The translations under genes were made by a program, and so were the position numbers. Below are positions 9,406 to 30,626 of a stretch of 64,000 nucleotides of DNA, one piece after another. Below the pieces are notes generated by a model. It searched no databases. It had not been told where the DNA came from and saw only the letters and a list, made by a program, of their open reading frames with translations. The stretch is taken from the NCBI GenBank assembly GCA_041665085.1, contig JBAYJO010000003.1, forward strand, positions 2,131 to 66,130, in the 5' to 3' direction. This DNA comes from Patescibacteria group bacterium (GTDB taxonomy: Bacteria; Patescibacteriota; UBA1384; JBAYJO01). Every line of letters starts with the position of its first letter. The first letter of the stretch is position 1.

Positions 9406-9406
9406 T

Positions 9407-11383
9407 TTAAAACTTAAATTTTCTTAATTCTTTGATTTCATCTCTGATTCTTGCTGCTGTTTCAAATTCCAAATGTTTGGCAGCTTCTCTCATGGCAATT
9501 GTTTTCTGTTTAATAATTTCCGGTACTTGCTCTAGATCTAAAACTAAATCTTCTGCTTTTTCTGCAATTTCTTCGTTTTTTTCATAAATTGAATATATTT
9601 CTTTTTTAATTGTTTGAGGTGTGATGTTGTGATCGGTATTATATTTTTGTTGGACTTTTCTTCTTTTTTCCGTGACTGAAATTGCTTTTTTCATTGAATC
9701 TGTGATTGTATCTCCATATAATATCACTCTTCCGGCTGAATTTCTAGCTGCTCGGCCAATTGTTTGAATAAGTGATCTTTCTGATCTTAAAAATCCTTCT
9801 TTATCTGCATCTAGAATTGCAACAAGTGAAACTTCGGGCAAATCTAGCCCTTCTCTTAAAAGATTAATTCCGACCAAGACATCAAATTCGCCTTTTCTAA
9901 GTCCGGCTAAGATTTCAAGTCTTTCGAGTGTATCTACTTCGGAGTGAATATATCTTGTTTTTACTCCTGCTTCGGTTAAAAATTCAGCAATATCTTCAGA
10001 CAAGGATTTTGTAAGTGTGGTTACTAAAATTCTTTCTTTTTTAACCTGTCTTAATCTAATTTCATGCAAGATATCATCGATTTGATTTTTTGTTGGACGA
10101 ACTTCAATTTCAGGATCAACAAGACCGGTTGGACGAATGACTTGTTCCACAATTTGAGTTGAGTTTTCCTCTTCAAAATGACTTGGTGTGGCTGATGTAA
10201 AAATTGCTTGAGAAACTTTTTTTTCAAATTCGTCAAATTTTAAAGGTCTATTATCAAGGGCTGATGGAAGTCTAAATCCATGTTCAACTAAAACTTCTTT
10301 TCTGGCGCGATCACCATTATGCATTCCGTTGATTTGAGGTATGGTAATGTGTGATTCATCGATTATGGTTAAAAAATCTGCAGGCCCGCCTTCAGTCGAG
10401 GCAGGAAAATAATCAAGTAAAGTTGCAGGAGGAGATCCGGCTGGACGATCTGACAAAATTCTTGAATAATTTTCAATACCATTACAATAACCAATATTTT
10501 CAAGCATTTCCATATCAAATTTTGTGCGCTGCTCCAGTCTTTGAGCTTCGAGCAATTTATTATGTGATTTTAAATCTTTAAGCCTTGATTCTAATTCAGA
10601 TTTTATTTCATTTAATGCTTTTTTGAGTTTTTGCGGTGAGATTAAAAAATGTTTTGCTGGGAAAATTGTAATATATCCAATATTTTCTGATTGTCGTCTT
10701 GAAATCGGATCAACTTCAAAAATATTAATTATTTTATTTCCCTGAAGTTCTACGCGAACAATTACATTTGCGTTAACCGGCATAATTTCAATTACTTCTC
10801 CTTTAGCTTTGAATGTTCCGCGTGTCAAATTTACATCGTTTCTCACAAAAAGCATTTCTATCAATTTTTTAATAATTTCATCTCGTGAAATTTTTTGAGC
10901 TGTGTAAATATTTAAAACCGTTTGTTTATATTCAATAGGGGATCCAAGACCATAAATGCAAGAAACGGAGGCAATTATAATTACGTCTTTGCGAGAAAGT
11001 AATGCTGAAGTGGCAGCATGTCGAAGTCTTTCAATTTCGTCATTTATTGTTGCTTCTTTCTCAATATAAGTGTCGGTTGTGGGTAAATATGCTTCCGGCT
11101 GATAGTAATCATAGTATGAAACAAAATATTCTACGGCATTTTTTGGAAAAAATTCGCGATATTCAGCGCAAAGTTGAGCCGCTAGAGTTTTATTTGGAGC
11201 AATTACAAGTGTTGGCTTTTGAATTTGGGCAATAATATTTGCAGCAGTGAATGTTTTTCCTGATCCGGTTACACCTAAAAGAGTCTGGTATTTTTGTTTT
11301 TCTTTGAGCCCTTTAACCAGCTTTTTTATTGCTTGTATTTGATCGCCTTTTGGCAAATATTTTTGTGATAATTCAAATTTCAT
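9407..11383 (-). CDS. uvrB: Excinuclease ABC subunit B (UvrB).
   Basis: 658 aa, helicase motifs ([12 protein letters not shown]), UvrB beta-hairpin region and C-terminal UVR domain '[13 protein letters not shown]'. Start is 2 nt downstream of the uvrA stop. Confidence 0.95.
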
Positions 11384-13878: not shown

Positions 13879-15093
13879 CTAGAATTTGAGGGTTGGGTGG
13901 GTGATTGTGATAATCTCCGGTTTAGGAGAGCTTTTCCTGTTCTTAGGAGGTCGTATCTTGTCGTTCGGAGAAGTTCCAATTGCATCCCGATCCAGTATCT
14001 GATGCTGTCTGATCTTAGTATCCTGTATTGAGACTAAGCGTGCTCCTTTCTTGGAAACTGTGATATTTCGGAAGTTGTTGGTTGCGTATTCTCTGTAGGA
14101 CATGCCATTATACATGGATCCAAGATCAAGTGTGGGATGAGGTACTGCTAGATCATAACACATTGAACCTCGAGAATGGTTCTCTTTGTTGGGCGGAACA
14201 TGGCATTGACAAAGTTCATAGCTTGGGCAAACCAAAGCGCAGTGCCTTTCGGCTGCTAAAGCGCTTGTTTTGGGTCGCCATTGACAGAGTCCGTTTCCAA
14301 TATGCCATGCACCTTGGTTGGAGTCGTAGCAGGACAATCCTGCATTATGGCAAGCAAGCGATAGATCTTCCGATAAGTCTTCGCTTATACCGTCTCTTTT
14401 GTCATAAGTGAAGCTTTTGATCATACCAAATTGGTAGACCAACCTCATGATCCAGATATCCACACAATAGAACGGTATTTGACGGAAGAATTCCCACTCC
14501 CTATCGTTGCCTTTCCATTGGATATCTTGAAGCCAGAGCAAGATTAGTTGAGCGATCTTGTGCTTCATCCCAACAGGTTTATCACGATGCTTGCCAGCGA
14601 GCGTCATTACCTTGATCAATCGGTCTCTGTTTTCCATCGGACTCTGATCAAGATTGAGATTCCGAAGAATCAAAATCCTAGGATCACCATCGTATTTCTC
14701 AAGGAGCTTAAGAGTGTTTCGCCACCAGTTGATTCTCTTTGGATCAGTGTGAGCAAAGGGAATGATTGGGGTTAGAATTCTCCGCAGCTCGTCTTGATAA
14801 CTCTCTGCCAGTCCAGTTGCAGGATTGAGTACTTCAGGGTGATCCAGACATACTGTGCTGCATTGGCTGATAGCTTTTTCAGCTGTTTTGCCAGATCTGT
14901 TGTTCCAGCCGACAAAGAAGAGATACATGGCATGCATTAGGCTGCCATATTCTATTTCTTTGGGTTGATGGCGAATTTCCGGGGGGTGCATATTGGCAAA
15001 ACCATAAGTACGGTTTTCCCATGCATCTGCCCAGCTTTTGCATACAACTGCTGCAGTATCGCAGTCAAACTCGTACTTTTTGATTCTGGCCAC
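13879..15093 (-). CDS. Hypothetical Cys-rich protein of the GC-rich island. There is a possible HhH-like 'FYCVDIWIMRLVYQFGMI' segment. Function unknown.
   Basis: Long ORF at ~48% GC. Likely GTG start at 15093, which lies 9 nt after GAAAGGAGG; the track gives TTG at 15129. Antisense ORFs over it are composition artefacts. Confidence 0.55.
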   Translation of the reverse strand: MARIKKYEFDCDTAAVVCKSWADAWENRTYGFANMHPPEIRHQPKEIEYGSLMHAMYLFFVGWNNRSGKTAEKAISQCSTVCLDHPEVLNPATGLAESYQDELRRILTPIIPFAHTDPKRINWWRNTLKLLEKYDGDPRILILRNLNLDQSPMENRDRLIKVMTLAGKHRDKPVGMKHKIAQLILLWLQDIQWKGNDREWEFFRQIPFYCVDIWIMRLVYQFGMIKSFTYDKRDGISEDLSEDLSLACHNAGLSCYDSNQGAWHIGNGLCQWRPKTSALAAERHCALVCPSYELCQCHVPPNKENHSRGSMCYDLAVPHPTLDLGSMYNGMSYREYATNNFRNITVSKKGARLVSIQDTKIRQHQILDRDAIGTSPNDKIRPPKNRKSSPKPEIITITHPTLKF

Positions 15094-15213
15094 TTGTGGC
15101 ACCCTCCTTTCAGATTGATCAGAATTCAAAAGAGAGCGTTCCTTGCTCCCTCATTTTCAATATAGATTATTTGTAAAAATAAGGCAAATGCAAAGGGGCA
15201 GCTATATTTCAAG

Positions 15214-16518
15214 CTACCCCGAGTTAGTCTGGCCTGTGCCAGCCAATACTGCTGGTTGTGATTCTTCAGCAGTCAGTTCGTCGATAGCGTCAAGTAGACG
15301 CCGAGTTTGTCGAGTCAGTCGTTTGACTTTCTTAGGATCAAGACTGATCAGGTGTCGCGCGAGTTTGGCTAGATGTGGTAGACCAATTCCCTCGAGACTA
15401 TTGATTACCATTTGGACTTGGCCAAGACATGAGTCAAGATGATCTAGTACTTTACCAAGTCTCTTACGGTTTTCAGGGTCGGTCATAGGTGAATCAGCTG
15501 TTGATAATAGGTGTTGTTCGCAGAGCCACTTCATTCCTTCGAATGTTAGTATAATGCCCTGCAAGCCATCGCCTGTCAAGCTCTTGATAGCATTGCGAAA
15601 TGCCTTTTCAGTATCAGCTTGGACAGAATAATCCATTGCTGCAGCTAAGTCCATTTGGACTAGACTGGCGATTCTTTCAGTGATGCGTCTGCGGTACTTT
15701 GGAATCGACAATCGTGGCCCTTGGCTTATGACATAACGCAATTCAGTTTCTAGCGTTTTTTCGCCGAACTTATGATCTGCCAATCGAGCCATCTCTATGG
15801 CAAAACCATACTTCATCTTGCTGTTTTCAACAGCTTTGCGCAAACGATCCGGCAAGCCGCAGAACTTGATCATGCGACTGACTTTGTTAGGGGAGCAACC
15901 AAGTTCTTTGGCCAATTTGGCATACGAGAATTGCGCATCTCTCTTGCGGTACATCTTAAGCATTGATTCGACAAAGTATGCCTCCTCATGTGCCGGTACT
16001 GTACCGTGGATGTTTTCGGAGACTTGAATGCATCTGGCGTAGAAAGGATCAGGATTGACATAGATGTCGCACCACCTGATTGCGCTTTTTGGAAACTGTA
16101 TCTCAAAGCAGTGGCATTCAGATGATTCTTCTCCATCAACCTTGCAACGCGAGCATCCTTTTTCACGGAGTTCGATCATTGCTCGAATTCTACATTCTCC
16201 TGCGATCAAGACATAGTATTTGCCTTTTCGCGCGTAGGATTTGTAGTCATCAAACTCGAGGGTTGCTCCATGAAGGTCTGCCGAGAAAAGCAAATACTCG
16301 ATGAACTTTGCTTTGCTGGTAAAAACAGCCAGCTTAATGTTGGTCAAAAGTCCCATTCGGCCGATATTCTCAGCCAAGTCAGTGATCTTGAGGGGATCAA
16401 AGGTGTGCCTTTCCTGTGGTAAGATAATCACATCTTCGATCGGGATTTCTCGACTTCGCATGAGCGATTCGAACTGTAGTCTCTCAACAACATTGTTTTC
16501 TGGTCCAGACTTTGTCAT
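15214..16518 (-). CDS. ParB/Srx-like nuclease-domain protein with an HTH domain.
   Basis: 'YVLIAGECRIRAM' resembles the ParB 'LIAGERRxRA' box. HTH 'SYAKLAKELGCSPNKVSRMIKF'. ATG at 16518 is preceded by AAAGGGGGTGA. GC ~50%. Confidence 0.65.
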   Translation of the reverse strand: MTKSGPENNVVERLQFESLMRSREIPIEDVIILPQERHTFDPLKITDLAENIGRMGLLTNIKLAVFTSKAKFIEYLLFSADLHGATLEFDDYKSYARKGKYYVLIAGECRIRAMIELREKGCSRCKVDGEESSECHCFEIQFPKSAIRWCDIYVNPDPFYARCIQVSENIHGTVPAHEEAYFVESMLKMYRKRDAQFSYAKLAKELGCSPNKVSRMIKFCGLPDRLRKAVENSKMKYGFAIEMARLADHKFGEKTLETELRYVISQGPRLSIPKYRRRITERIASLVQMDLAAAMDYSVQADTEKAFRNAIKSLTGDGLQGIILTFEGMKWLCEQHLLSTADSPMTDPENRKRLGKVLDHLDSCLGQVQMVINSLEGIGLPHLAKLARHLISLDPKKVKRLTRQTRRLLDAIDELTAEESQPAVLAGTGQTNSG

Positions 16519-16609
16519 TTCATCACCCCCTTTTGTCCAGACTAATTTAATCATTAAAATAAATACGAGACTTGTCAAATGGTACATGTTAATAAATATG
16601 TGGAAAAGT

Positions 16610-16648
16610 ATATATTAAAAAGGTTAAGGCAGGCGCAAGCGCCTGCCT
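16610..16648 (-). terminator. Rho-independent terminator downstream of purA (minus strand).
   Basis: Perfect hairpin 'aggcaggcgc aa gcgcctgcct', followed on the minus strand by TTAACCTTTTTAATATA. Confidence 0.7.
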
Positions 16649-16680
16649 AATAAGTCAATATTCAGTTTTGGGTCAATCCG

Positions 16681-17952
16681 CTATTTGCGGAGGATGATCT
16701 TGTCTCGATGAGCACCGTTGGTCACGATGACGATCGGAACTCCGAGAAGCTGCTCGATGTGATCGATGTAGCTGCGTGCTGCTTCGGGAAGTTCATCCAT
16801 GCTTGTTGCTCCTGTGATGTCTTCCTTCCAGCCGGGTAATGTCTCGTATTCTGGTTCGACTTTGCCTAGCAGATCCGTGGTCGGGTAGCTGGCAAGGATC
16901 GAATCCCGGTACTTGTAAGCGATGCAGATCTTGATCTCATCAAGCTGACTCAAGATATCAAGCTTGGTCATGATGAGACTGGTGAATCCGCCAACCATCA
17001 TAGCGTACTTGAGCGCTACGATATCGAGCCATCCGCATCTTCGTTTCCTGCCGGTAGTAGCGCCGTACTCGTTGCCAGATGTTCGGAGTTGTTCGCCGAT
17101 CTGGTCTCGCAATTCGGTGGGAAAAGGACCAGCACCAACAGCAGTGGTGTATGCTTTCATAACTCCGTAGATCTCGATGATTTCGAGCGGTGAAATTCCG
17201 GCTCCTGCAATAATACCAGCAGGGCTAGGGCAGGAGCTGGTAACGAATGGATAGGCACCTTCATTGAGATCCCGCATAAGGCCAAGTTGTCCTTCGAGCA
17301 AGATCTGCTTGCTGCCAGATACTGCAGTGTGGATCAGCTCAATTGGATTCATGACATGTGGAGCAATGAATCGACATGCTCCTTCAATCTCATCCATGAT
17401 CTGACTCAAGCTAAGCCCACTGTGACCATAGAGCGAGAGTCGATCATTGATCCATTCAAGTTCTTGGCTTATGTGGTTGCTAAATTGCCCAAGGTCAAGG
17501 ACCTCCTCGACTCGGAATCCGCTCCTGTTTGCCTTGTCGGCATAGCACCACGCAATGCCTTGATGGGTCGATCCAATCTCTTTGCCATTGCCCATGCGCC
17601 GCTTTTCATCTAGCATGTCGAAAAGGACGTGATAGGGCATGACGAGATGGGCAAGTGGGGAAATGATGAGCTTGCTGGTGTTGATTCCTACTTTCTGCAA
17701 CTCTCTGATTTCAGTTTCAACACCAACCGGATTGACGACGCAACCATTTCCGATGATGCAGGTGGTCTCGGGGTTGAATATCCCAGATGGGATAGCATGC
17801 AATTTGAAGACTCGGCCGTCGCGTTCAACAGTGTGGCCGGCATTGGCTCCACCTTGACCACGAATAACCATATCAGCTTCAGTGGCAAGATAATCAACCA
17901 CTTTGCCTTTGCCTTCATCTCCCCATTGTGTTCCGGCTACGATATCGACCAT
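16681..17952 (-). CDS. purA: Adenylosuccinate synthetase.
   Basis: 'VAGTQWGDEGKGK', 'GGANAGHTV', 'GTTGRKRRCGWLD' canonical motifs. Start at the internal 'MVDIVAG…'; the track ORF extends 25 codons upstream. GC ~52%, atypical for this window. Confidence 0.9.
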   Translation of the reverse strand: MVDIVAGTQWGDEGKGKVVDYLATEADMVIRGQGGANAGHTVERDGRVFKLHAIPSGIFNPETTCIIGNGCVVNPVGVETEIRELQKVGINTSKLIISPLAHLVMPYHVLFDMLDEKRRMGNGKEIGSTHQGIAWCYADKANRSGFRVEEVLDLGQFSNHISQELEWINDRLSLYGHSGLSLSQIMDEIEGACRFIAPHVMNPIELIHTAVSGSKQILLEGQLGLMRDLNEGAYPFVTSSCPSPAGIIAGAGISPLEIIEIYGVMKAYTTAVGAGPFPTELRDQIGEQLRTSGNEYGATTGRKRRCGWLDIVALKYAMMVGGFTSLIMTKLDILSQLDEIKICIAYKYRDSILASYPTTDLLGKVEPEYETLPGWKEDITGATSMDELPEAARSYIDHIEQLLGVPIVIVTNGAHRDKIILRK

Positions 17953-18087
17953 AGTAGAATTATCCTCTCTTGTGAAGTAGTGTAAGGCAATCGGTTGCTT
18001 ATCTTCACAACCATAAGAATAGTACAATTTAATAAATAAAAAATCAATCTATTTTAAAAAATATTTTAGAACTGTGTCAATTATTGT

Positions 18088-20303: not shown

Positions 20304-21080
20304 ATGGAAGAAAAATTTAAAAGGTTAAAAACCTTGAATGCGTGGGCGTGTTTGCTTCATTTGGTCTCGGGAATATTAATGGTAGCGTTATCAACTAACC
20401 TAGAAGTGCCTATTACGGCCTCTTTTTTGCATTTTGACAGATTTAGTCAGACTCTGGTTCCGCAGATGGAAACATTATTTTCAATTAAACTTGGACTACT
20501 TGTAGCATCATTTTTGTTTATGTCTTCAATCGCTCATTTTTTAATTGCTTTTCCACTTAATAGTTGGTACAACAAAAACCTTAAGAATAATATAAATATT
20601 GCAAGATGGATTGAATATGCTTTTTCGTCATCTGTTATGATGGTTGTTATTTCATTTTTAGTTGGTATGAGCGATATTGCAACTTTAATTGTAATATTTT
20701 TTCTAAATGCAATGATGATACTTTTTGGATGGATGATGGAGCTTCATAACCAAACCCTTCGACAGTGTTCGGAACAGGCCGAAAAGGTAAACTGGACAGC
20801 ATACATTTTTGGTTGTATTGCTGGAATTGGTCCATGGATTGCTGTTGCGATATATTTAGCAAGTCCGGGAGTAGCTGATAATCCACCAACTTTTGTGTAT
20901 TGGATTTTCTTTTCAATTTTTATTTTCTTTAACATTTTTGCTGTAAACCAGATACTTCAATATAAAAAATTCGGTAAATGGAATGATTATCTTTATGGAG
21001 AAAAAGTATATATTATTTTAAGTTTTGTGGCAAAATCGCTTCTTGCGTGGCAAGTTTTTGCTGGTACACTAAGACCATAG
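20304..21080 (+). CDS. Heliorhodopsin (7-TM retinal protein, inverted topology).
   Basis: Full-length similarity to characterised heliorhodopsin 48C12: 'RWIEYAFSSSVM', 'FGWMMELHN', 'FGCIAGIGPWIAV', 'KFGKWNDYLYGEKVYIILSFVAKSLLAWQVFAGTL'. TM7 has the Schiff-base Lys in 'SFVAKS' and TM3 the counterion Glu in 'WIEY'. Confidence 0.9.
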   Translation: MEEKFKRLKTLNAWACLLHLVSGILMVALSTNLEVPITASFLHFDRFSQTLVPQMETLFSIKLGLLVASFLFMSSIAHFLIAFPLNSWYNKNLKNNINIARWIEYAFSSSVMMVVISFLVGMSDIATLIVIFFLNAMMILFGWMMELHNQTLRQCSEQAEKVNWTAYIFGCIAGIGPWIAVAIYLASPGVADNPPTFVYWIFFSIFIFFNIFAVNQILQYKKFGKWNDYLYGEKVYIILSFVAKSLLAWQVFAGTLRP

Positions 21081-21085
21081 GAAGT

Positions 21086-21454
21086 ATGAAAAAGATAAAC
21101 AAAAATTTAATTGCTTCGTGTGGAATGAACTGCGGAGTTTGTAGAGCATATTTGCGAGAGAAAAATAAATGTCCGGGCTGCCAAAAAGGTCCGACTATGA
21201 TTTCGTGCCAGCGTTGCAAACTTATGAACTGTCCTGATAGAAAGGGTGAATTTTGTTTTGAATGTGAGAAATTTCCATGTGATAGGCTTAATCATTTAGA
21301 TAAACGATATCGCGAAAAATACGGCATGAGTGAAATTGAAAATCTTGAAAATATTAGAGATAATGGGATTGATGAATTTATGAAAAGCCAGCGAAAAAAA
21401 TACCAATCAGAAAAAGGAACTTTTTGCGTGCATGATAAAAAATATTATAAATAA
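21086..21454 (+). CDS. Cys-rich DUF3795-family protein, translationally coupled to heliorhodopsin.
   Basis: CGMNCGVC…CPGCQ…CQRC…CPDR…CFEC…C pattern. ATG is 5 nt after the heliorhodopsin stop, preceded by AGGAAG. Confidence 0.65.
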   Translation: MKKINKNLIASCGMNCGVCRAYLREKNKCPGCQKGPTMISCQRCKLMNCPDRKGEFCFECEKFPCDRLNHLDKRYREKYGMSEIENLENIRDNGIDEFMKSQRKKYQSEKGTFCVHDKKYYK

Positions 21455-21466
21455 AAAGGAGAAAAA

Positions 21467-21790
21467 ATGGATCATAATAATATTACTACAGCACTCGAAT
21501 TGCCAGATTTAAAAATTGAAAAAAATTTAGGTGTTGTAAAAGGGATTACTGTTAGATCAAGATCATTATTTGGAACTATTGGAGCAGCATTTCAGACACT
21601 AGCAGGTGGAAATATTTCACTTTTAACAACACTTTGTGAAAAAACTCGAGCCGAAGCTTATGAATTAATGATTAAGCACGCAGAAGAAATTGGGGCAAAT
21701 GCTGTTGTGGCGGTAAAATATGACGCTACTGAAGTGATGAGTGGCGTGACTGAAGTATTGTGCTACGGCACTGCCGTTGTGGTGAAATAA
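21467..21790 (+). CDS. YbjQ/UPF0145 (DUF74) family protein.
   Basis: 107 aa, 'GVVKGITVRSRSLFGTIGAAFQTLAGG…ANAVVAVKYD' typical of YbjQ. Confidence 0.7.
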   Translation: MDHNNITTALELPDLKIEKNLGVVKGITVRSRSLFGTIGAAFQTLAGGNISLLTTLCEKTRAEAYELMIKHAEEIGANAVVAVKYDATEVMSGVTEVLCYGTAVVVK

Positions 21791-23275: not shown

Positions 23276-23304
23276 TTGACATCAATAATGTATGGGTATA
23301 TATT
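23276..23304 (+). promoter_or_regulatory. Sigma70-type promoter (TTGACA-17-TATATT) upstream of the DUF5320 gene.
   Basis: Exact consensus -35 and a near-consensus -10 with a 17-nt spacer, ~40 nt upstream of the RBS AAAGGAGGTGA. Confidence 0.55.
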
Positions 23305-23346
23305 TATAGTATAAGGTAAAATTATCACCGAAAGGAGGTGAGAAAT

Positions 23347-23586
23347 ATGCCAGGATTTGATCAAACAGGTCCTCAAGGACGAGGTCCAATGACAGGAAGA
23401 GGGTTGGGACCATGCGGGAGAGGTATGGGCTGGGGCAGAGGTTACGGACAAGGTTGTGGGAGATTCGCAGGACGATCCTATCTCTCAAAAAGAGAAGAAG
23501 TGGAAGATTTAGAAGAAGAAGCCAAAGATCTTGAATCAGATCTTAAAGCTTTAAAAGAAAGAATTGCTGAGATCAAGGGAGAATAA
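23347..23586 (+). CDS. DUF5320-family protein (Gly/Arg-rich N-terminus, C-terminal coiled coil).
   Basis: 'MPGFDQTGPQGRGPMTGRGLGPCGRGMGWGRGYG' followed by an acidic coiled coil. ATG after AAAGGAGGTGA. This family typically accompanies NifB/NifX-like and MinD-FeS genes. Confidence 0.7.
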   Translation: MPGFDQTGPQGRGPMTGRGLGPCGRGMGWGRGYGQGCGRFAGRSYLSKREEVEDLEEEAKDLESDLKALKERIAEIKGE

Positions 23587-23686
23587 AAAAGCCGCTCCGG
23601 CGATCCAGTCTTTCTGGACGCTGGGGCGACCCTGCATTTTCAATTTTACTGAAAAATAAATATTTATCAATAAGAGAGGGAGTAAA

Positions 23687-24418
23687 ATGAGATTGGAAAA
23701 TAAAGTAGCGATTGTAACGGGTGCAGCATCCGGTATCGGCAAAGCGATCGCTGAAACATTTATTAAAGAAGGGGCCAAGGTTGTCTATTCCGATATTAAT
23801 GCGCCGGATAATTTTGAAACAACCGACAGAACATTATTTATAAAATGCGATGTTTCAAATTCAAAAGATGTGGATGCGTTGATTGGTGGAACAATCGATC
23901 ATTTTGGTAAAATTGACATTATGGTAAATAATGCCGGAATCGGCGGTTTGGGCGGTATTCTTGATGTTACTGATGAGAATTGGGATAAAACAATCGGGAT
24001 AAATCTTTCCGGCGTGATGTACGGCATGAGAGCAGTAGCCAATAAGATGAAGGAGTCGAACATCAAGGGCGCTATCATTAATATGAGTTCTATCTTGGGA
24101 AGTGTTGGTTTTAATGGAGCTATTGCATACTGCGCGGCAAAAGGCGGAATTGTTCAACTAACGCATGCCGGTTCTCTTGATCTTGCTCAATATAATATTA
24201 GAGTAAACGCAATTGCCCCGGGATTTATCCAAACCAATATGACAAAAGATATTTTGAAAGATGAACAATTTAATCAATTAGTAACCGGATCAACACCGCT
24301 GGGGCATGTTGGTGAGCCAGATGACATTGCCAATGCTGCTGTTTATTTGGCATCAGACGAGGCCAAATATGTCACAGGTAACATTTTATATGTTGACGGT
24401 GGGTGGACAGCTAAATAG
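23687..24418 (+). CDS. SDR-family oxidoreductase (FabG-like 3-oxoacyl-ACP reductase type).
   Basis: 'VTGAASGIGKA', 'NNAGI', 'YCAAKGG', 'YVTGNILYVDGGWTA'. Confidence 0.85.
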   Translation: MRLENKVAIVTGAASGIGKAIAETFIKEGAKVVYSDINAPDNFETTDRTLFIKCDVSNSKDVDALIGGTIDHFGKIDIMVNNAGIGGLGGILDVTDENWDKTIGINLSGVMYGMRAVANKMKESNIKGAIINMSSILGSVGFNGAIAYCAAKGGIVQLTHAGSLDLAQYNIRVNAIAPGFIQTNMTKDILKDEQFNQLVTGSTPLGHVGEPDDIANAAVYLASDEAKYVTGNILYVDGGWTAK

Positions 24419-24428
24419 AAAGGAAGAA

Positions 24429-24767
24429 ATGAAAATAGCAATCGGAATAAAAGACAAAGAGAGCAAAGAAATAAATGAGATGTTTGCTAGATCTTCGTAT
24501 TTTTTATTTATAGAAGTTGAAAATAAAGAAATTGTCAATGAAAAAATTGAAGAAAATACATTTACCGATCAAATGAGCGGCGCTGGGATTGCCGTAATTG
24601 AACATTTGGCAAAAAAGGAAGTCGAGACAATAATTTGCGCTAATCTTGGACCACGTGCGCTTGATCTTTGTAAACAACTTCAAATTAAAGCCTACAAAAC
24701 AAATGATTCTACCTATGAAAAAACTATAGAATTATTTTTGAAAAATGATTTAGTTGAGATCAAATAA
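24429..24767 (+). CDS. NifX/NifB-C-terminal-like (dinitrogenase FeMo-cofactor-binding fold) protein.
   Basis: 112 aa, 'MKIAIGIKDK…MFARSSYFLFIEV…GAGIAVIEHLAKKEVETIICANLGPRALDL'. Start placed after RBS AGGAAG; the track ORF runs on from the upstream gene. Confidence 0.7.
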   Translation: MKIAIGIKDKESKEINEMFARSSYFLFIEVENKEIVNEKIEENTFTDQMSGAGIAVIEHLAKKEVETIICANLGPRALDLCKQLQIKAYKTNDSTYEKTIELFLKNDLVEIK

Positions 24768-24768
24768 T

Positions 24769-25116
24769 ATGAAAATAGCAATACCAACAAACGACAAAAA
24801 AACTGTTGCAGACCATTTTGGACGTTGCCAAACATACTTGTGTTTTGACGAAAAAGGCAATAGTTTGGCCGAGATTAACAATACTTCCGAGCATATGGGC
24901 GGACAAGGATTGCCTCCGGAATTACTAAAAAATAACGGTGTGGATGTTCTTTTGTGCAAAGATTTAGGACCCTACGCTATCTCACTTTGCAGTGAAAATA
25001 ACATAAAGGTTTACAAACATTCTGAAGCAGAATTGATAAATAGCCTTTTTAATTTATGGCAGTCTAATAAATTAAAAGAAATCGCTATCGGTGAAGGCTG
25101 TGAAAGCCATCAATAA
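24769..25116 (+). CDS. NifX/NifB-like FeMo-co-binding-fold protein (second paralog).
   Basis: 'MKIAIPTNDKKTVADHFGRCQTYLCFD…GVDVLLCKDLGPYAISL', with the characteristic HFG motif. Confidence 0.7.
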   Translation: MKIAIPTNDKKTVADHFGRCQTYLCFDEKGNSLAEINNTSEHMGGQGLPPELLKNNGVDVLLCKDLGPYAISLCSENNIKVYKHSEAELINSLFNLWQSNKLKEIAIGEGCESHQ

Positions 25117-25125
25117 GGAGAAAAT

Positions 25126-25995
25126 ATGAAAATTGCAGTCGCCGGAGGAAAAGGTGGAACCGGAAAATCTACTATCGCGACAATAATTGCGGCAGAATTG
25201 GGCGTAAAAGCAAAAACTATGCTCATTGATTGCGATGTAGAATGTCCCAATGATCATTTGCTTTTGAATACTAAGCTTAAATTCTATAAAGATGTTTTTC
25301 AAGTTATTCCTAAATGGGATCAAGACATCTGCAACAAATGTGGCAAATGCGCTGAAATTTGTAAACAAGATGCTATAATTTTTGTCGAAGGCAAATTTCC
25401 CGCGTTTTTAGCGGAAAGATGCATTGGTTGTAAGGCATGCTTAGCTGCCTGTCCGCTCCATGCAATAAGCACTGATCAAAGGCCTGTTGGAAAAATTTAC
25501 CTGTCGGATAGCAAAAAATATAATATTACTTTAGTCACCGGAGAGTTAAATATTGGAGATTTGGCTTCCGGAGAAATTGTAGCCGAATTACGAAAAGAGT
25601 CAAAAAAAATTAATCTTGATAAAAAATGCGAGCATATTGTTACTGATGCGGCCGCCGGAATCGGTTGTCCTGTTATCGCTTCAATATTGAACAATGATTA
25701 TATGATCGCGGTTACCGAGCCAACTCCTTCTGCTTTTAGCGACTTAAAGAGAGTAATCAGCTTGGCAACTCATTTTAATATTCCCATTGGAATTGTAATA
25801 AATAAGTATGATATAAATGAAAAATTTATTAAGGAAATTGAAAAATTTGCCGATTGCTATAAAATTAAAATAGTCGGAAAAATCCCTTACGATAAAAATC
25901 TGATAAAATTAAATGTGGAAGGAAAAATAAGCGACAAGAGCAAATATAAAGAAATTATTAAAAAATTATTAAGCAATATTGAAGAAACCATATGA
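25126..25995 (+). CDS. MinD/ParA-superfamily P-loop ATPase with a 2x[4Fe-4S] ferredoxin insert (CooC/Mrp-like).
   Basis: 'AGGKGGTGKST' deviant Walker A and two CxxCxxCxxxCP motifs (CNKCGKCAEIC, CIGCKACLAACP). Confidence 0.8.
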   Translation: MKIAVAGGKGGTGKSTIATIIAAELGVKAKTMLIDCDVECPNDHLLLNTKLKFYKDVFQVIPKWDQDICNKCGKCAEICKQDAIIFVEGKFPAFLAERCIGCKACLAACPLHAISTDQRPVGKIYLSDSKKYNITLVTGELNIGDLASGEIVAELRKESKKINLDKKCEHIVTDAAAGIGCPVIASILNNDYMIAVTEPTPSAFSDLKRVISLATHFNIPIGIVINKYDINEKFIKEIEKFADCYKIKIVGKIPYDKNLIKLNVEGKISDKSKYKEIIKKLLSNIEETI

Positions 25996-27263
25996 AAATG
26001 AACGCCAAAATAATTTCATTAATCTCAGCCATTACCAATATTATATTGTCGGCGGCAAAATTGATTGCCGGTTTTGCTTTTGGTAGCATTACATTGATTG
26101 CATCAGGTATAGATTCATCCCTAGACATTGTGTCTTCTCTTATAACTTTCTTTGGAATTAAAATCTCTGAAAAACCTGCCGACAAAGAACATCCTTATGG
26201 TCATGCAAGATATGAAAGTTTGGCTAGCTATACCGTAGTAATGCTTATTTTTGCTTCGACGCTTTGGATTATTTATGAAGCTTTCATTGAATTATTCAAA
26301 GGCGGTTACAATGTGCAGTATTCAATAATTTCTATAATAGTAATTATTGCTGCCATAATTATTACAGAAGTGCTAGCACGGCTTAAGTACTACTTTGGCA
26401 ATAAGTTTTCCTCGCTTTCTCTTGTTGCGGACGCACAACATTCAAGAGCCGATGTTCTATCGCAGATTGCCGTTTTAACCGGTCTTTATATAACAAAATA
26501 TTTTTCTGTCGCAGACAATATTTTAGCAATTCTAATTGCTTTTTATGTTCTCTGGAGTACATATAATCTTGCTAAGGAATCGGTTGATTCGCTAGTCGAT
26601 AAGGCAAATAATGAACTTGAAAAAAAGATTGATGATTGGCTTAAAACCAATGATTATCATTTTTCCGATATAAAGACTCGAAAAATAGGATCTCAAAATT
26701 TTGCTGAAATATTCTTAGTATTGGAAAAAAAATTAGAAACAGAAGAAATAACTGAATATCTTCGAAAACTCGAGCATCAGATATTAAACAGTTTTAACGA
26801 ATTGACTCAAGTCACTTTGTCCATTGATTCGCATAATATTTCGGACTCTTCGACCAGAAATTGGCTTGGCGGAAGAATGCATTTTCGATTTGCCAATTCT
26901 AATATGAAAGGCACAGCAATCAGCCCCAAAGAAACAGATGCTTACCGTATTGTAATTCCGTATCAAGATGGCAAAATATCTTCAGATTTTGGTTCTAAAG
27001 AGTACATGCTAATCGACCGTTCCTCTAAAAAAGAAGGGTTTAAGAAAGAAATTACAGCCAATCCTTTTTTTGACAATGGAGAAAATTCAGGTCACGGAGT
27101 TCGTTTTATAAAATCCGTCGATGCGGATGAAATCATTGTTAGATCGATCGGTCACGGAGCATTGAACAATTTAAAGTCACAAAATGTTAAGATTACTATC
27201 CTTAAGAAGGATATTAGTTTAGATGAATTAGAAAGAGAAAAGTATGAAACCGAGAAAATGTAG
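25992..27263 (+). CDS. Cation diffusion facilitator (CDF) transporter fused to a C-terminal NifX-like domain.
   Basis: N-terminal 6-TM CDF core ('HPYGHARYESLAS', 'HSRADVLSQ'). C-terminal ~110 aa 'RIVIPYQDGKISSDFGSKEYMLID…GHGVRFIKSVDADEIIVRSIGHGALNNL' resembles the upstream NifX-like proteins. Confidence 0.7.
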   Translation: MKMNAKIISLISAITNIILSAAKLIAGFAFGSITLIASGIDSSLDIVSSLITFFGIKISEKPADKEHPYGHARYESLASYTVVMLIFASTLWIIYEAFIELFKGGYNVQYSIISIIVIIAAIIITEVLARLKYYFGNKFSSLSLVADAQHSRADVLSQIAVLTGLYITKYFSVADNILAILIAFYVLWSTYNLAKESVDSLVDKANNELEKKIDDWLKTNDYHFSDIKTRKIGSQNFAEIFLVLEKKLETEEITEYLRKLEHQILNSFNELTQVTLSIDSHNISDSSTRNWLGGRMHFRFANSNMKGTAISPKETDAYRIVIPYQDGKISSDFGSKEYMLIDRSSKKEGFKKEITANPFFDNGENSGHGVRFIKSVDADEIIVRSIGHGALNNLKSQNVKITILKKDISLDELEREKYETEKM

Positions 27264-27528
27264 AAAAATCGAATTTGAACCAAGCGTTTTTTATTTTAAA
27301 CCGCAGGGAGTCCCGCTTCGTTTTTTGGATGAGGTTGATCTTTCAGCTGAAGAATTAGAAGCAATGAGGCTAAAAAATATTGAGGATATGGATCAGATCG
27401 AAGCAGCAGAAAAAATGCATACTTCGCAGAGTACCTTCCAACGAATCTTGTCTTCCGCATACAAAAAGATTTCCATTGCCTTGATAGAAGGCAAAGCAAT
27501 AAAAATTCATGAAATTGAGCGTCCATAA
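27244..27528 (+). CDS. DUF134/UPF0251 predicted DNA-binding protein.
   Basis: 'KPRKCRKIEFEPSVFYFKPQGVP…LSAEELEAMRLKNIEDMDQIEAAEKMHTSQSTFQRIL…ALIEGKAIKI' matches the family hallmark. Confidence 0.7.
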   Translation: MKPRKCRKIEFEPSVFYFKPQGVPLRFLDEVDLSAEELEAMRLKNIEDMDQIEAAEKMHTSQSTFQRILSSAYKKISIALIEGKAIKIHEIERP

Positions 27529-27588
27529 AACATTTTGCGTGTCAATAAACCAATGTCTTGTTAAAAAATAGCTTTAGCTTTAGCTTTA

Positions 27589-28354
27589 GGGGACGCTTCA
27601 CTTTCACTCAATGCTTTAGCGATAACTTAAATTTTGGTATAGTATAGTTATGCCACGACAACCAAGATTTCTTCCACCGGACAACTACTATCATATAATG
27701 AACCGCGGTAATAACGGCCAGCAGATTTTTACTTGTGATGAAGATTATCAATATTACCTCGACAAATTATTAGAACTTAAATATGAACATCCATTTAATC
27801 TCTCTCACTATTGTCTGATGCCTACTCATGTTCATTTTTTACTAAAAATAATCAAAGAAACTGATTTTTCCATCTTTTCAAAACGGTTGAACTTAAGTTA
27901 CGCTATTTATTTTAAAAGAAACTATGGCTCTATAGGCCATTTCTGGCAGGGTAGGTTTAAAAGCCAGTTAATAAGCAATGATATCTATCTTATGCAGTGC
28001 GGAAAATATATTGAATTAAATCCAGTCAGAGCAGACATGATAACAATGCCAGAAGACTATTCCTGGTCAAGCTATCAATATTATGCCTTTGGTAAAAAGA
28101 ACAGTTTGATTACCGAAGATATTTTTTACAATGAATTTGGAAATGATCAAAAAGAAAGGCAAAAAAATTATTCCCAATTTATGATTGATGAGGCTATTGC
28201 GACTACGATGAGTAGTAAGAAGCTAGCTATCGGAGCTAAAGATTTCGTGTATAATATAAATAGAAAAAATAAATACCACTTAGAAAATAAAGATGCTTCC
28301 TACCATTCAAAAAATACTTATCGCTAAAGTATTGAGTGAAAGTGAAGCGTCCCC
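27589..28354 (+). mobile_element. REP-associated tyrosine transposase (RAYT)/IS200-like element bounded by 33-bp perfect inverted repeats.
   Basis: Left inverted repeat 27589-27621 'ggggacgcttcactttcactcaatgctttagcg' and right inverted repeat 28322-28354 (its exact reverse complement). Short tandem repeats (tagcttt)x3 and (ccccgaaag)x2 lie just outside. Confidence 0.75.
27650..28327 (+). CDS. Y1 HUH tyrosine transposase (RAYT / TnpA-REP family).
   Basis: 'YHIMNRGNNGQQIF…HYCLMPTHVHFLLK…' has the HxH (HVH) motif, and there is a downstream Tyr region ('YSWSSYQYY'). Confidence 0.75.
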   Translation: MPRQPRFLPPDNYYHIMNRGNNGQQIFTCDEDYQYYLDKLLELKYEHPFNLSHYCLMPTHVHFLLKIIKETDFSIFSKRLNLSYAIYFKRNYGSIGHFWQGRFKSQLISNDIYLMQCGKYIELNPVRADMITMPEDYSWSSYQYYAFGKKNSLITEDIFYNEFGNDQKERQKNYSQFMIDEAIATTMSSKKLAIGAKDFVYNINRKNKYHLENKDASYHSKNTYR

Positions 28355-28397: not shown

Positions 28398-29141
28398 ATG
28401 GACGGTGCAATGAGCAGTATTAATATTTTAATTTTAGCTTTTCTTTCCGGATTGGCTACATTTTTCGGTGTTTACCTTGGAGACAAAAGCAATAAAAGCA
28501 CTGCAAATATTGCTTTCGGCACTAGTTTTGCGGCTGGTATTATGATTTTAATATCATTTTTTGAGCTTATTCCGGAAGCTTACCATAGTGCTGGTGCAAG
28601 GTCTTTATTTTGGGTAGTTTTAGGTTTATTGGCAGTTTGGTTGATAAATAAAATCTTGCCGCATATTCACTCAATAAAAGGGATTGAAAATTGTGAACAA
28701 AAATGTTCTCTAAAATTATCTTATCTTTTAGCGATCGGCTTAATTCTTCATGACTTTCCGGAAGGATTTGCCATCCCAAGCTCATTTACAAGTTCTTCAG
28801 AGCTAGGATTGCTTCTAGTAATTGCTACATTTATTCACAATATTCCAGAAGGATATGTTTTAACTGTTGCCTCGGCTAAATACAAGAGCAAAGGGTTCTT
28901 TTATAAATTGGCACTATTTTCAGCAGTTTCGACACTGTTAGGGGCTACTCTAGGCGTAATTTTAATTCATTACTTTAGTTTTCTTAACCCAGTCTTTCTT
29001 TCGATTGCCGCAGGAGCGATGATATTTATATCTATTCACGAACTCATTCCAGCGAGTTTAAAGAATGGCAGGAAACTGACTTTTCTTCTCGGAACTAGTA
29101 CTTCGCTGGCTGTTTACTTCGGACTTAATTTAATATTTTAA
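28398..29141 (+). CDS. ZIP-family metal (Zn/Fe) transporter.
   Basis: 'HDFPEGFAI' and 'HNIPEGYVL' metal-binding TM motifs, ~8 TM. Confidence 0.85.
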   Translation: MDGAMSSINILILAFLSGLATFFGVYLGDKSNKSTANIAFGTSFAAGIMILISFFELIPEAYHSAGARSLFWVVLGLLAVWLINKILPHIHSIKGIENCEQKCSLKLSYLLAIGLILHDFPEGFAIPSSFTSSSELGLLLVIATFIHNIPEGYVLTVASAKYKSKGFFYKLALFSAVSTLLGATLGVILIHYFSFLNPVFLSIAAGAMIFISIHELIPASLKNGRKLTFLLGTSTSLAVYFGLNLIF

Positions 29142-29208: not shown

Positions 29209-29937
29209 ATGAAAATTACACATGTTTTATTAACAGCGGTGATCGTCGCTATGCCAAATGCTATCTTAGCGGTATCGAGCAATAGTCAAGGGCAGGGATC
29301 GGTTTCATCAAATAGTTCATCGAGTACATCGGTAAACTCAAACAGCGCAAATTCAAACAGTCAGTCCGGTACCGGTATTCAGACGCAAAACCAAACTCAG
29401 ACGAACAACGCTGGGGCTTCAACACAGATTCAAACTCAAACAGAGGAGGAAACTCAAGCTGCAGCAAAGGTAAAAGAAACTGCTCCGAAATATATCCCGA
29501 CTAATTCAAAATCTGTCGAACACAAAAGCGTGGTTGCTAATGCGGTTCAAAGTTTAATTCAAGCCTCTTATCAACTTGAAAACACTGGTCTTGGTGATCA
29601 AGTTAGAACTATCGCTCAAACTCAGTCGCAAAATCAAGATAAAATTGGTCAGGCTGTAGATAACGCAGACAAACGAACTGGCTTTGCCAAATTTTTTATC
29701 GGTGTAAATTACAAAGAGTTAAGACTTGCCAAGACGGCCATGGAGCAAAATCGAACGCAGATTCAAGAGTTAGAACAACTAATGGCTCAAATTGATAATG
29801 AGGGCGACAAGTTGGAAATTGCCAACCAAATTATAGTTTTGCAAAATCAACAAATCGAACTTAAAGATCAACTAGCAGAAGAAACTTCGGGTTTTTCGCT
29901 CTTTGGCTGGCTCGCACGATGGCGTAATAGCTACTAA
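29209..29937 (+). CDS. Secreted S/N/Q-rich protein with a C-terminal coiled coil. Hypothetical.
   Basis: Signal peptide, low-complexity Ser/Asn/Gln region, heptad-like C-terminus. RBS AAGGAG. Confidence 0.5.
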   Translation: MKITHVLLTAVIVAMPNAILAVSSNSQGQGSVSSNSSSSTSVNSNSANSNSQSGTGIQTQNQTQTNNAGASTQIQTQTEEETQAAAKVKETAPKYIPTNSKSVEHKSVVANAVQSLIQASYQLENTGLGDQVRTIAQTQSQNQDKIGQAVDNADKRTGFAKFFIGVNYKELRLAKTAMEQNRTQIQELEQLMAQIDNEGDKLEIANQIIVLQNQQIELKDQLAEETSGFSLFGWLARWRNSY

Positions 29938-29996: not shown

Positions 29997-30626
29997 ATGA
30001 AATTTTTAATCAAACTTGATCGGTTTTTTGCGTGGGTTCTGTTCGGTGGGATGTTACTTTATTTTGTCTCCGGTTATGGCATGACTAAAGGTATAATTGA
30101 TGTATCTTTTGCAACTAAAATTCATCTCAACTTTTTGACGTACATTATTCTGATGGCTTTCACCTTTCATACTTTTTATGCCATTCACTTGGCTTTTAAA
30201 CGATGGCGAATTTGGGGTGGGCCAGCGAAGGTTTTACTGGTCAGTTTTTTCGTTGCCTTTTTCGGATCTTTCGTCTATATCGATCGATATTATCAAATCT
30301 CTAAGCAAATACCCGTAGAGTCTAGCCCTAGTGAAAGTGTGAGCAACACAAATTCTGAAGCAATAACACTGACAAACTCAAACAGCAATAGTGCTTTGTC
30401 TACCGAAGAGACTTTTACCATCTCACAGCTTTCGAAGTATAATGGCAAAAATGGTCAGAGCGCCTATGTAGCTGTTGACGGTAACATTTATGATCTAACT
30501 TCGGTTTTTAATAATGGTAGTCATTTTTCTCATTATGCCGGAACCGAATTAACTAATGCATTTTACACTCGTCATGCTAAAAGTGCTCTCTCTAAATTTC
30601 CAATTGTGGGAAAATTGGTAAAATAA
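29997..30626 (+). CDS. Membrane protein with a C-terminal cytochrome b5-like heme/steroid-binding (MAPR-type) domain.
   Basis: 4 TM, then 'FTISQLSKYNGKNGQSAYVAVDGNIYDLT…HYAGTELTNAF'. Confidence 0.6.
   Translation: MKFLIKLDRFFAWVLFGGMLLYFVSGYGMTKGIIDVSFATKIHLNFLTYIILMAFTFHTFYAIHLAFKRWRIWGGPAKVLLVSFFVAFFGSFVYIDRYYQISKQIPVESSPSESVSNTNSEAITLTNSNSNSALSTEETFTISQLSKYNGKNGQSAYVAVDGNIYDLTSVFNNGSHFSHYAGTELTNAFYTRHAKSALSKFPIVGKLVK

Follow-up and report, generated by a model that had tools for sequence, protein, structure and literature searches.

Introduction

Cation diffusion facilitators (CDFs) of the YiiP/FieF type, known from Escherichia coli and Shewanella, are dimeric exporters with six transmembrane (TM) helices, a transport site A that forms a DD-HD quartet in E. 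coli YiiP, a site B of one aspartate and two histidines, and a cytoplasmic domain of alpha-beta-beta-alpha-beta topology. Together with the magnetosome proteins MamB and MamM, they are the closest known CDFs to a protein encoded in a 64,000-nucleotide stretch of a Patescibacteria group bacterium (contig JBAYJO010000003.1, positions 2,131 to 66,130), which in its entirety is called the window here. The complete gene occupies 25992-27263 on the + strand, as do all domains and operon genes described below, with an unbroken reading frame of 423 amino acids (aa) and a stop codon at 27261-27263. Its product is a YiiP/FieF-type CDF that carries a genuine extra domain of the IPR003731 fold on a flexible tether. 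Relative to YiiP/FieF, it adds a linker of ~30 aa and a fourth domain of ~105 aa after the cytoplasmic C-terminal domain, and its gene does not stand alone but sits in an operon of the Fe-S/NifX type.

The species bound by IPR003731 domains are Fe-S, thioferrate or Mo-Cu-S, with few cysteine ligands or none (PMC6345978, PMC5524996), and most proteins of this kind contain three cysteines or fewer and lack a defined ligand (PMC5524996). The orange protein (ORP) cluster of Desulfovibrio encodes two MinD-like proteins that carry two 4Fe-4S motifs (Orp3 and Orp4), the IPR003731 protein Orp8, which has a homologue that binds a Mo-Cu-S cluster, and Orp5, a homologue of a protein that binds [2Fe-2S] (PMC6345978). 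The same system includes a fusion, MrpORP (Orp9 of Desulfovibrio vulgaris), which joins an Mrp/NBP35 ATPase to an IPR003731 domain and transfers Fe-S clusters to the Orp3/Orp4/Orp8 complex (PMC6345978). IssA, which stores iron-sulfur in Pyrococcus furiosus, combines an IPR003731 domain with a cationic, Gly/aromatic-rich disordered tail, which has been proposed to wrap anionic thioferrate (PMC5524996). Finally, a 2025 analysis of an ANME-2a genome lists a CDF gene among genes for 4Fe-4S, NifX-family and P-loop proteins with near-consecutive locus tags (PMC12622379), which is consistent with the operon linkage described below.

The interpretation preferred here, with confidence somewhat better than even, is that the window protein is a CDF exporter in an ORP-like operon, and that its fused domain couples ion export to the cluster-handling machinery.

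Architecture of the fusion protein

The initial annotation had described this open reading frame (ORF) as a canonical CDF with a C-terminal domain resembling the NifX-like proteins encoded just upstream. The ORF runs as proposed, and the two motifs quoted from its tail, DFGSKEYMLID and GHGVRFIKSV, fall at aa 332-342 and aa 367-376. A 100% identical database protein (P0001) comes from a 'Patescibacteria group bacterium' metagenome-assembled genome; its NCBI model starts two codons later (421 aa), and it is annotated merely as a 'cation diffusion facilitator family transporter'. From the N-terminus, the protein consists of the CDF TM domain, the CDF cytoplasmic domain, a cationic disordered linker of ~30 residues and a NifX-superfamily domain at aa 317-420. 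The AlphaFold2 (AF2) model of the full-length protein, with a predicted local distance difference test score (pLDDT) of 81.6, follows this order, with six long helices, an alpha-beta-beta-alpha-beta domain, a disordered stretch and a NifX-like fold. A domain scan of the kind called for initially returns PF01545 and TIGR01297 above threshold, ZT_dimer just under its cut-off and a weak, sub-threshold PF02579 match.

The TM domain (25992-26606, aa 1-205) is that of a canonical CDF, as initially annotated. PF01545 (Cation_efflux) matches aa 10-202 (4e-40; 138 bits against a cut-off of 26.6) and TIGR01297 matches aa 9-281 (2e-59; 201 bits against 82.35), and the closest solved structure to the CDF part is E. 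coli YiiP/FieF (3h90/2qfi, 5e-26). AF2 places the six helices at residues 5-30, 33-59, 73-103, 112-138, 142-168 and 174-201, and the model and the YiiP alignment together give the CDF pattern of six helices with (H/D)xxxD in TM2 and HxxxD in TM5. Transport site A is intact: D41 and D45 in TM2 and H150 and D154 in TM5 align with D45, D49, H153 and D157 of YiiP, and the quartet is identical to that of the E. coli protein. Site B (D64, H67, H71) likewise aligns with its YiiP counterpart, whereas by alignment the window protein lacks most of the histidines that make up binuclear site C in YiiP. Relatives were aligned in sets of 33 and later 95 sequences, and conservation was counted over 83 orthologues; D45, H150 and D154 are kept in 83/83, and position 41 is histidine in 63 and aspartate in 20. 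Across sites A and B, the aligned residues show no or next to no variation in these orthologues.

The metal carried by the exporter is less evident from its sequence. An HD-HD site A is the classical Zn2+ (ZnT-type) signature in CDFs. Among the NCBIfam models, FieF, MntE, MamB and MamM rank above the Zn-specific Cdf31 and ZitB for the CDF part. All specific equivalog models (FieF, MntE, MamB, MamM, ZitB) score far under their own cut-offs, and therefore metal specificity can only be inferred; Fe2+ is somewhat favoured over Zn2+.

The extra domain is not a misreading of the normal CDF cytoplasmic domain, a possibility that had been named initially as the outcome that would overturn the fusion. 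That domain is separately present at 26610-26840 (aa about 207-283), where PF16916 (ZT_dimer) matches aa 223-279 (1e-5) with 25.9 bits, slightly below the cut-off of 26.7; many orthologues exceed the Pfam threshold. AF2 predicts alpha-beta-beta-alpha-beta over aa 207-278, consistent with the metallochaperone-like CDF cytoplasmic fold. From the match and the predicted topology, it follows that the NifX-like part is additional.

A flexible cationic linker, '...RNWLGGRMHFRFANSNMKG...', joins the two at 26841-26939 (aa 284-316), with pLDDT below 50 over aa 290-310. Across the family, the linker averages 29 aa, 25% R/K, 13% G and 10% aromatic residues, and G293 within it is kept in 76/83 orthologues. 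By homology with YiiP, both termini would be cytoplasmic, which would put the extra domain on the substrate-entry side of the exporter.

The NifX-like domain

The extra domain (26940-27251, aa 317-420) belongs to the NifX/IssA/ORP superfamily (PF02579/IPR003731), an assignment on which family matches, profile matches to solved structures and the predicted fold agree. First, PF02579 (Nitro_FeMo-Co) matches aa 326-403 of the window protein, scoring 22.5 bits when the full sequence is scanned and 26.2 bits when the domain is scanned by itself, against a cut-off of 26.3, and is matched at E < 0.01 by 25/25 orthologous C-terminal domains (best 5e-13). Second, a profile of the C-terminal domain matches six solved PF02579 proteins in the PDB, including 1o13/1t3v (4e-8; labelled inconsistently as TM1290 or TM1816 in the search outputs), PH0822 (1.6e-7) and MTH1175 (3e-7), and also 1rdu and MJ0327. 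Third, the AF2 model of the domain alone (pLDDT 88.2) has a beta-beta-beta-alpha-beta-alpha-beta-alpha, RNase-H-like fold, for which the top 13 Foldseek matches in the PDB are all NifX-family proteins (probability 1.00, template modelling scores 0.54-0.66). They comprise PH0822, Ta1041m, TM1816, NifX in NifEN (9ian_F, 4e-5), NafY (1p90, 6.5e-4), ORP, TM1290 and MTH1175, and are followed by a gap to generic RNase-H-like folds at E > 0.05.

The relationship to the upstream genes was proposed in the initial annotation and is correct at the level of the family, as both upstream ORFs encode PF02579 proteins (1.2e-16 and 4.9e-14). The pairwise alignment that it called for succeeds in one case: BLASTP aligns the tail with ORF 24429-24767 (28% identity over 76 aa, E 2e-5), but finds no similarity to ORF 24769-25116. 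Aligned by hhalign, the family profile matches the two ORFs with 81% and 69% probability, respectively. A possible derivation of the tail from the adjacent gene at 24429-24767 was examined in a neighbour-joining tree, which puts the fused domains in a clade of their own, nested in neither group of upstream proteins. A word-indexed search with the C-terminal profile returned three proteins and yielded no genuine free-standing orthologue of the fused domain. Two candidates for such a copy are themselves fusion sequences: P0122 is a fusion cut off at a contig edge, and P0121, on a contig of ~1 kb, holds part of the CDF cytoplasmic domain and is a fusion fragment.

Profiles and models support calling the tail NifX-like at the superfamily level only. 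It shares its fold with NifX, NafY and NifB-C, but has no match to TIGR02663, the model of NifX in the strict sense, and the neighbouring ORF 24769-25116 reaches 21.6 bits against a cut-off of 112. No nif genes are present in the 12 kb examined around the fusion. Patescibacteria are not known to fix nitrogen.

Conserved positions in the domain are R319, P323, F333-G334, Y338, N357, H368-G369, F372, K374, D379 and G387. N357 and G369 are present in 83/83 orthologues and H368 in 64/83, and K374, R/K371 and R319 are also strongly conserved, all on loops that correspond in the alignment to those of the HFG and H-G motifs elsewhere in the family; D379 is strongly conserved as well. The histidine of the HFG(R/H) motif is not kept. 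The window protein reads DFGS, and orthologues have D, E, H, R, I or L before an F-G that is retained, as is the H-G of the second loop. No cysteine is conserved either, and 58/83 orthologues have none after residue 284. The CxHFGHCE cysteine/histidine motif of the MrpORP/ORP system is likewise absent.

These substitutions raise the alternative that the domain is a ligand-free structural module, a degenerate NifX fold that would serve dimerisation or stability and have no functional tie to clusters or to the neighbouring genes. Besides the lost histidine and the lack of a conserved cysteine, this view can draw on the marginal Pfam score, on fusions that occur outside the operon and on the general scarcity of cysteines and defined ligands among IPR003731 proteins (PMC5524996). 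Conservation of the polar loop residues (N357, G369, H368, K374, R/K371 and R319) argues against it, as do the linkage of the operon across two domains of life and the canonical HFGRA motif kept by archaeal fusions, both described below. A purely structural module is unlikely on this evidence, and a domain that couples export to the cluster-handling machinery remains the preferred interpretation.

Distribution of the fusion

The fusion is widespread. In the first database search, 82 full-length relatives (375-439 aa, 35-84% identity) retain it; those with a named source are all Patescibacteria (Nealsonbacteria, Portnoybacteria, Parcubacteria), and about half have a precomputed PF02579 match. 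In total, ~80 Patescibacteria clusters carry the fusion. In a search of one genome per GTDB species, nine loci match most of the query length; the matches start at residues 1-3 and end at residues 404-423 in L006-L010 and L012-L014, and span residues 8-388 in L059. All nine are apparently Patescibacteria, some of them under automatic record titles such as 'Saccharibacteria' or 'Bdellovibrionales', and they include the complete genome CP179888; a second complete genome with the fusion, CP179890, came from a separate look-up.

A HMMER search with the C-terminal profile over 1.84 billion representatives gave 310 matches at E < 1e-3, the best of which are fusions or fusion fragments, and revealed a second set of proteins of 380-445 aa with Cation_efflux, ZT_dimer and a canonical Nitro_FeMo-Co domain (Pfam E 1e-11 to 1e-19). 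A search started from P0266, a member of this set, retrieved at least 120 clusters at 90% identity, all with the three Pfam domains; their sources are Aenigmarchaeota, Woesearchaeota, Diapherotrites, Thermoplasmatota and a single 'Microgenomates' bin, and they are named just CDF transporters or hypothetical proteins. The archaeal fusions (for instance P0266, P0267 and P0316) of DPANN and Thermoplasmatota share the three-domain order and the operon type of the window protein. They differ in retaining the HFGRA motif in place of DFG, in scoring canonically rather than marginally against Pfam, and in lacking the linker, which is confined to the Patescibacteria subfamily; the archaeal domain is joined straight to the CDF C-terminal domain. 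The fused domains of the two sets align by hhalign with 94% probability, an NPY motif included, and the CDF parts are ~24% identical. The window protein belongs to a divergent Patescibacteria subfamily that is barely recognised by Pfam.

The same profile search also gave many tandem double-NifX-like proteins of ~230-280 aa with two PF02579 domains (P0154, P0158, P0159 and others), as well as a 561-aa Mrp/ParA protein with two such domains (P0262). Domain duplication and fusion are therefore common in the PF02579 superfamily.

The initial annotation considered the architecture unusual. It is not rare, and Pfam sees all three domains in most of these proteins, but it is unstudied, and no description of a CDF::NifX-like architecture was found in the searchable literature. 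The parts are known and the combination is already detectable in domain databases, yet it is unannotated and undescribed in that literature. Selection has maintained the fusion in bacteria as well as in archaea.

This spread also disposes of a trivial explanation, in which an assembly, frameshift or gene-calling error would have joined a CDF to a downstream NifX-like gene. Such an error is conceivable in that, in several archaeal loci (L018, L022, L023), the gene right after a non-fused CDF encodes a stand-alone NifX-like protein. The frame is uninterrupted, however, the linker itself is conserved, with G293 among its kept positions, and the fusion recurs in the Patescibacteria and archaeal clusters across many assemblies and in both complete genomes. 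Conservation of the fusion refutes the artefact, whose probability is negligible.

Some archaeal fusions (P0283, P0304) have a further C-terminal tail that ends '...YRVRRGGPWWRRW'; its Trp/Gly/Arg composition recalls the proposed thioferrate-binding tail of IssA.

A comparison with IssA leads to a different possibility, in which the tail of the window protein would be a membrane-anchored store. The linker and the IPR003731 domain would hold anionic thioferrate-like Fe-S, and the CDF would bleed off or balance the Fe2+ that is released. Both systems place an IPR003731 domain next to a disordered, cationic, Gly/aromatic-rich segment (PMC5524996 for IssA) in the context of iron handling by anaerobes, and the Patescibacteria linker is chemically similar in its content of basic, glycine and aromatic residues. 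The archaeal tails just described, the Gly/Arg-rich DUF5320 protein of the same operon and the ranking of the CDF part, for which FieF, MntE and MamB/MamM are the best-scoring models even if their cut-offs are far from reached, also fit such a store. Set against this, IssA is a soluble protein with a C-terminal tail of ~70 aa, whereas here the order of elements is reversed, with a segment of just ~30 aa that precedes the domain and is tethered to a transporter. The resemblance is compositional and not one of homology, and most archaeal fusions have no such segment. An IssA-like store is quite improbable, and the coupling of ion export to cluster handling is retained as the preferred interpretation.

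The surrounding operon

The fusion gene is the sixth in a tightly packed, same-strand run at 23338-27528. The first gene (23338-23586) encodes a DUF5320 protein (PF17253, 2e-13) with a Gly/Arg-rich N-terminus and a coiled-coil C-terminus, and is preceded at 23276-23304 by a promoter-like site that agrees with 11/12 consensus positions, which is a consensus match only. It is followed by a short-chain dehydrogenase/reductase (SDR; 23687-24418; adh_short_C2, 1e-70), which is less firmly tied to the cluster; in L002, a copy with 48% identity adjoins the cluster and is encoded on the opposite strand. Next are two stand-alone NifX-like proteins, 'a' (24429-24767, 112 aa), which has orthologues in related loci, and 'b' (24769-25116, 115 aa), which has an HFGRC motif, is 33% identical to 'a' and has orthologues of 50-57% identity in related loci. 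The gene immediately upstream of the fusion (25126-25995) encodes a MinD/ParA-type P-loop ATPase with an inserted 2x[4Fe-4S] ferredoxin module (CbiA 3e-18, ParA 2e-13, several Fer4 families) that resembles Orp3/Orp4. Its stop codon overlaps the start codon of the CDF (ATGA; sequence 25990-25996), and the two genes adjoin in many loci. The run ends with a DUF134 protein of 94 aa (27244-27528; PF02001, 9e-21), a sigma-70 region-4-like helix-turn-helix protein and the presumed regulator of the cluster. Its gene starts 20 nt inside the end of the CDF gene and is the one most consistently linked to this CDF clade.

This arrangement is conserved. The same genes flank orthologues of 40-50% identity (L001, L002, L004, L089), and the archaeal fusion loci L091 and L092 contain, in order, DUF134, NifX-like, fusion, NifX-like and two MinD/Fer4 genes. 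Linkage was scored by tblastn of the cluster proteins of the window against all fetched loci, within about 6 kb. Where the CDF is at least 33% identical, 31/44 loci carry one or more cluster genes and 26/44 carry two or more, compared with 1/45 of the more distant CDF loci with any cluster gene nearby. Several loci also contain insertions or additional genes. In L002, SfLAP/DsbD_2-like and YibE_F membrane proteins (6266-6991 and 8253-9425) are inserted next to the fusion, and in L001 a carboxymuconolactone decarboxylase-like (CMD) protein (9067-9582); the archaeal cluster of L091 includes a TrmO_N gene.

Among described systems, the operon resembles the Desulfovibrio ORP cluster, in which MinD-like proteins with two 4Fe-4S motifs are also encoded together with single-domain IPR003731 proteins (24429-25995 in the window), and it is the counterpart of that cluster in the Candidate Phyla Radiation (CPR) and DPANN. 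As judged from its sequence, it is ORP-like and not an orthologous orp locus. The regulator is sigma-54/OrpR there and DUF134 here. MrpORP offers a parallel to the fusion, in that an IPR003731 domain is again joined to a protein that belongs to this kind of cluster, but that protein is an Mrp/NBP35 ATPase in Desulfovibrio and a membrane transporter here; against the MrpORP model NF041136 (cut-off 450), the fusion scores 26 bits and no window protein exceeds 51 bits.

The closest non-fused CDFs (P0092-P0117; loci L016-L036) are found in the same type of cluster in Woesearchaeota, Aenigmarchaeota, Methanosarcinales, Bathyarchaeota and other Patescibacteria. They are 340-360 aa long, and in place of the NifX-like domain they have a conserved Gly/Arg/aromatic segment, 'FGxGFGWQRxG', followed by a four-cysteine tail, CxCPxC...CPxC. 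This tail has weak zinc-ribbon matches in Pfam, with no family above threshold; since these are the only matches, a DUF5320-like nature of the tail was discarded. The appendage at this position of the CDF has thus been swapped between two putative metal-binding modules, an argument that selection acts to keep some cytoplasmic module for binding or docking. In a crude neighbour-joining tree of the CDF part, which is not robust, the fused state may be ancestral and the zinc-ribbon tail a later replacement.

Downstream of the operon, a ZIP-family metal importer is encoded at 28398-29141 (+; PF02535, 5e-25). ZIP genes are also near the fusion in L002 and L004/L005, and in 4/44 close loci overall. 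Between the DUF134 and ZIP genes lies an IS200-like Y1 transposase gene (27650-28327; PF01797, 2e-12), preceded by an intergenic region with a short (GCTTTA)x3 tandem at ~27572-27590; another Y1_Tnp gene is near the fusion in L088.

The ZIP genes and the four-cysteine tails bear on a further alternative, that the CDF would detoxify Zn2+, Cd2+ or another thiophilic metal and so guard the Fe-S or Mo-S carriers, with the NifX-like domain as a decoy or sensor. The ZnT-type HD-HD site A in 63/83 orthologues is in favour of this proposal, as are the ZIP importer near several loci, the Zn that the four-cysteine ribbon of the non-fused relatives would bind, and the Mo-Cu-S cluster bound by the orange protein (PMC6345978). 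However, the Zn-specific NCBIfam models rank below those of FieF, MntE and MamB/MamM, the linkage to ZIP genes is weak at 4/44 loci, and no sequence feature separates Zn from Fe. A dedicated detoxifier is therefore doubtful, with only a small probability, and the preferred interpretation of an exporter coupled to the cluster-handling machinery is developed below.

Proposed function

In the proposed mechanism, a homodimeric YiiP/FieF-type CDF would work as a proton antiporter that carries one divalent transition-metal ion out of the cytoplasm per cycle. The fused domain would act on the cytoplasmic, substrate-entry side, where the topology of YiiP would place it, and would either bind a labile metal or Fe-S species or dock the soluble NifX-like and MinD/Fer4 proteins of the operon. 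Ion export may then be coupled to, gated by or fed from the loading state of the cluster-handling machinery. The conserved operon supports a metal/Fe-S binding or partner-docking role of the fused domain, and a sensing or docking role can be inferred for it from sequence.

The initial annotation had gone further and suggested that a metal cluster is handed to or taken from the transporter. This is mechanistically unlikely because the CDF site takes single ions and the pore cannot pass a cluster, and the fused domain has no conserved cysteine. The idea is plausible when narrowed to the hand-over of ions or to regulation.

Several observations weigh against the coupling of export to cluster handling. 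Owing to the disordered linker, the extra domain has no confidently predicted position with respect to the transporter in the AF2 model. The PF02579 score of the window protein itself is marginal, at 22.5-26.2 bits against 26.3. With its HFG histidine gone and no cysteine in the window's domain, ligand binding is not assured, and with an HD-HD site A in the majority of orthologues, Fe2+ as the substrate is not secure. Some fusions (P0072, P0120, L013, L014) lie outside the operon. Finally, the role of ORP-type clusters is itself unsettled, with cell division and Fe-S maturation as the proposals in the literature.

Other features of the window

The window is AT-rich (GC ~33%). Just upstream of the operon are two small, putatively metal-related genes. 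One, at 21047-21454 (+), encodes a Cys-rich DUF3795 protein, and the other, at 21467-21790 (+), a YbjQ_1 protein labelled 'putative heavy-metal-binding' (1.5e-27). A full-length heliorhodopsin gene (20304-21080, +; 258 aa; PF18761, 1e-96) precedes the operon by ~2.3 kb and the fusion by ~5 kb. On the other side, a membrane protein with a C-terminal cytochrome-b5-like heme/steroid-binding domain (29997-30626, +; PF00173, 2e-7) is preceded by a Ser/Asn/Gln-rich, secreted-looking protein with no Pfam match (29209-29937).

The stretch at 14001-18000 stands out with a GC content of 45-47%. It contains adenylosuccinate synthetase (16681-18027, 1e-158) and two large ORFs without a convincing Pfam match, at 13879-15129 (no match) and 15214-16587 (a sub-threshold ParB helix-turn-helix). 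An rRNA operon was considered as its explanation and rejected, as Rfam finds only tRNAs in the window. This stretch may have been acquired horizontally.

Implications

Stand-alone NifX-like (IPR003731) proteins and MinD-type ATPases with a ferredoxin insert are co-encoded in thousands of anaerobe genomes. Those characterised so far are the Desulfovibrio ORP complex, in part, and IssA. A conserved fusion to a single-ion exporter in Patescibacteria and DPANN is direct genomic evidence that links the NifX-like/MinD-Fer4/DUF134 machinery to transmembrane metal flux, and one membrane protein with an expressible tail offers a concrete handle on the NifX-like/MinD-Fer4 part of it. For CDF biology, the extra domain represents a new class of cytoplasmic appendage, interchangeable with a four-cysteine ribbon in sister lineages, that bears on the regulation or loading of CDFs. 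No established concept is changed yet, as the architecture is visible in domain databases though unremarked.

A more far-reaching possibility, speculative and of low probability, is that the fusion, its linker and the DUF5320, NifX-like and MinD/Fer4 partners form a membrane-anchored machine of the CPR and DPANN that couples Fe2+ flux to a protein-bound, IssA/thioferrate-like Fe-S pool. If so, it would constitute a new route of iron-sulfur buffering or trafficking in organisms without most canonical metal-homeostasis systems, and the fusion would be a 'Rosetta stone' that gives function to the ORP-type clusters of anaerobes.

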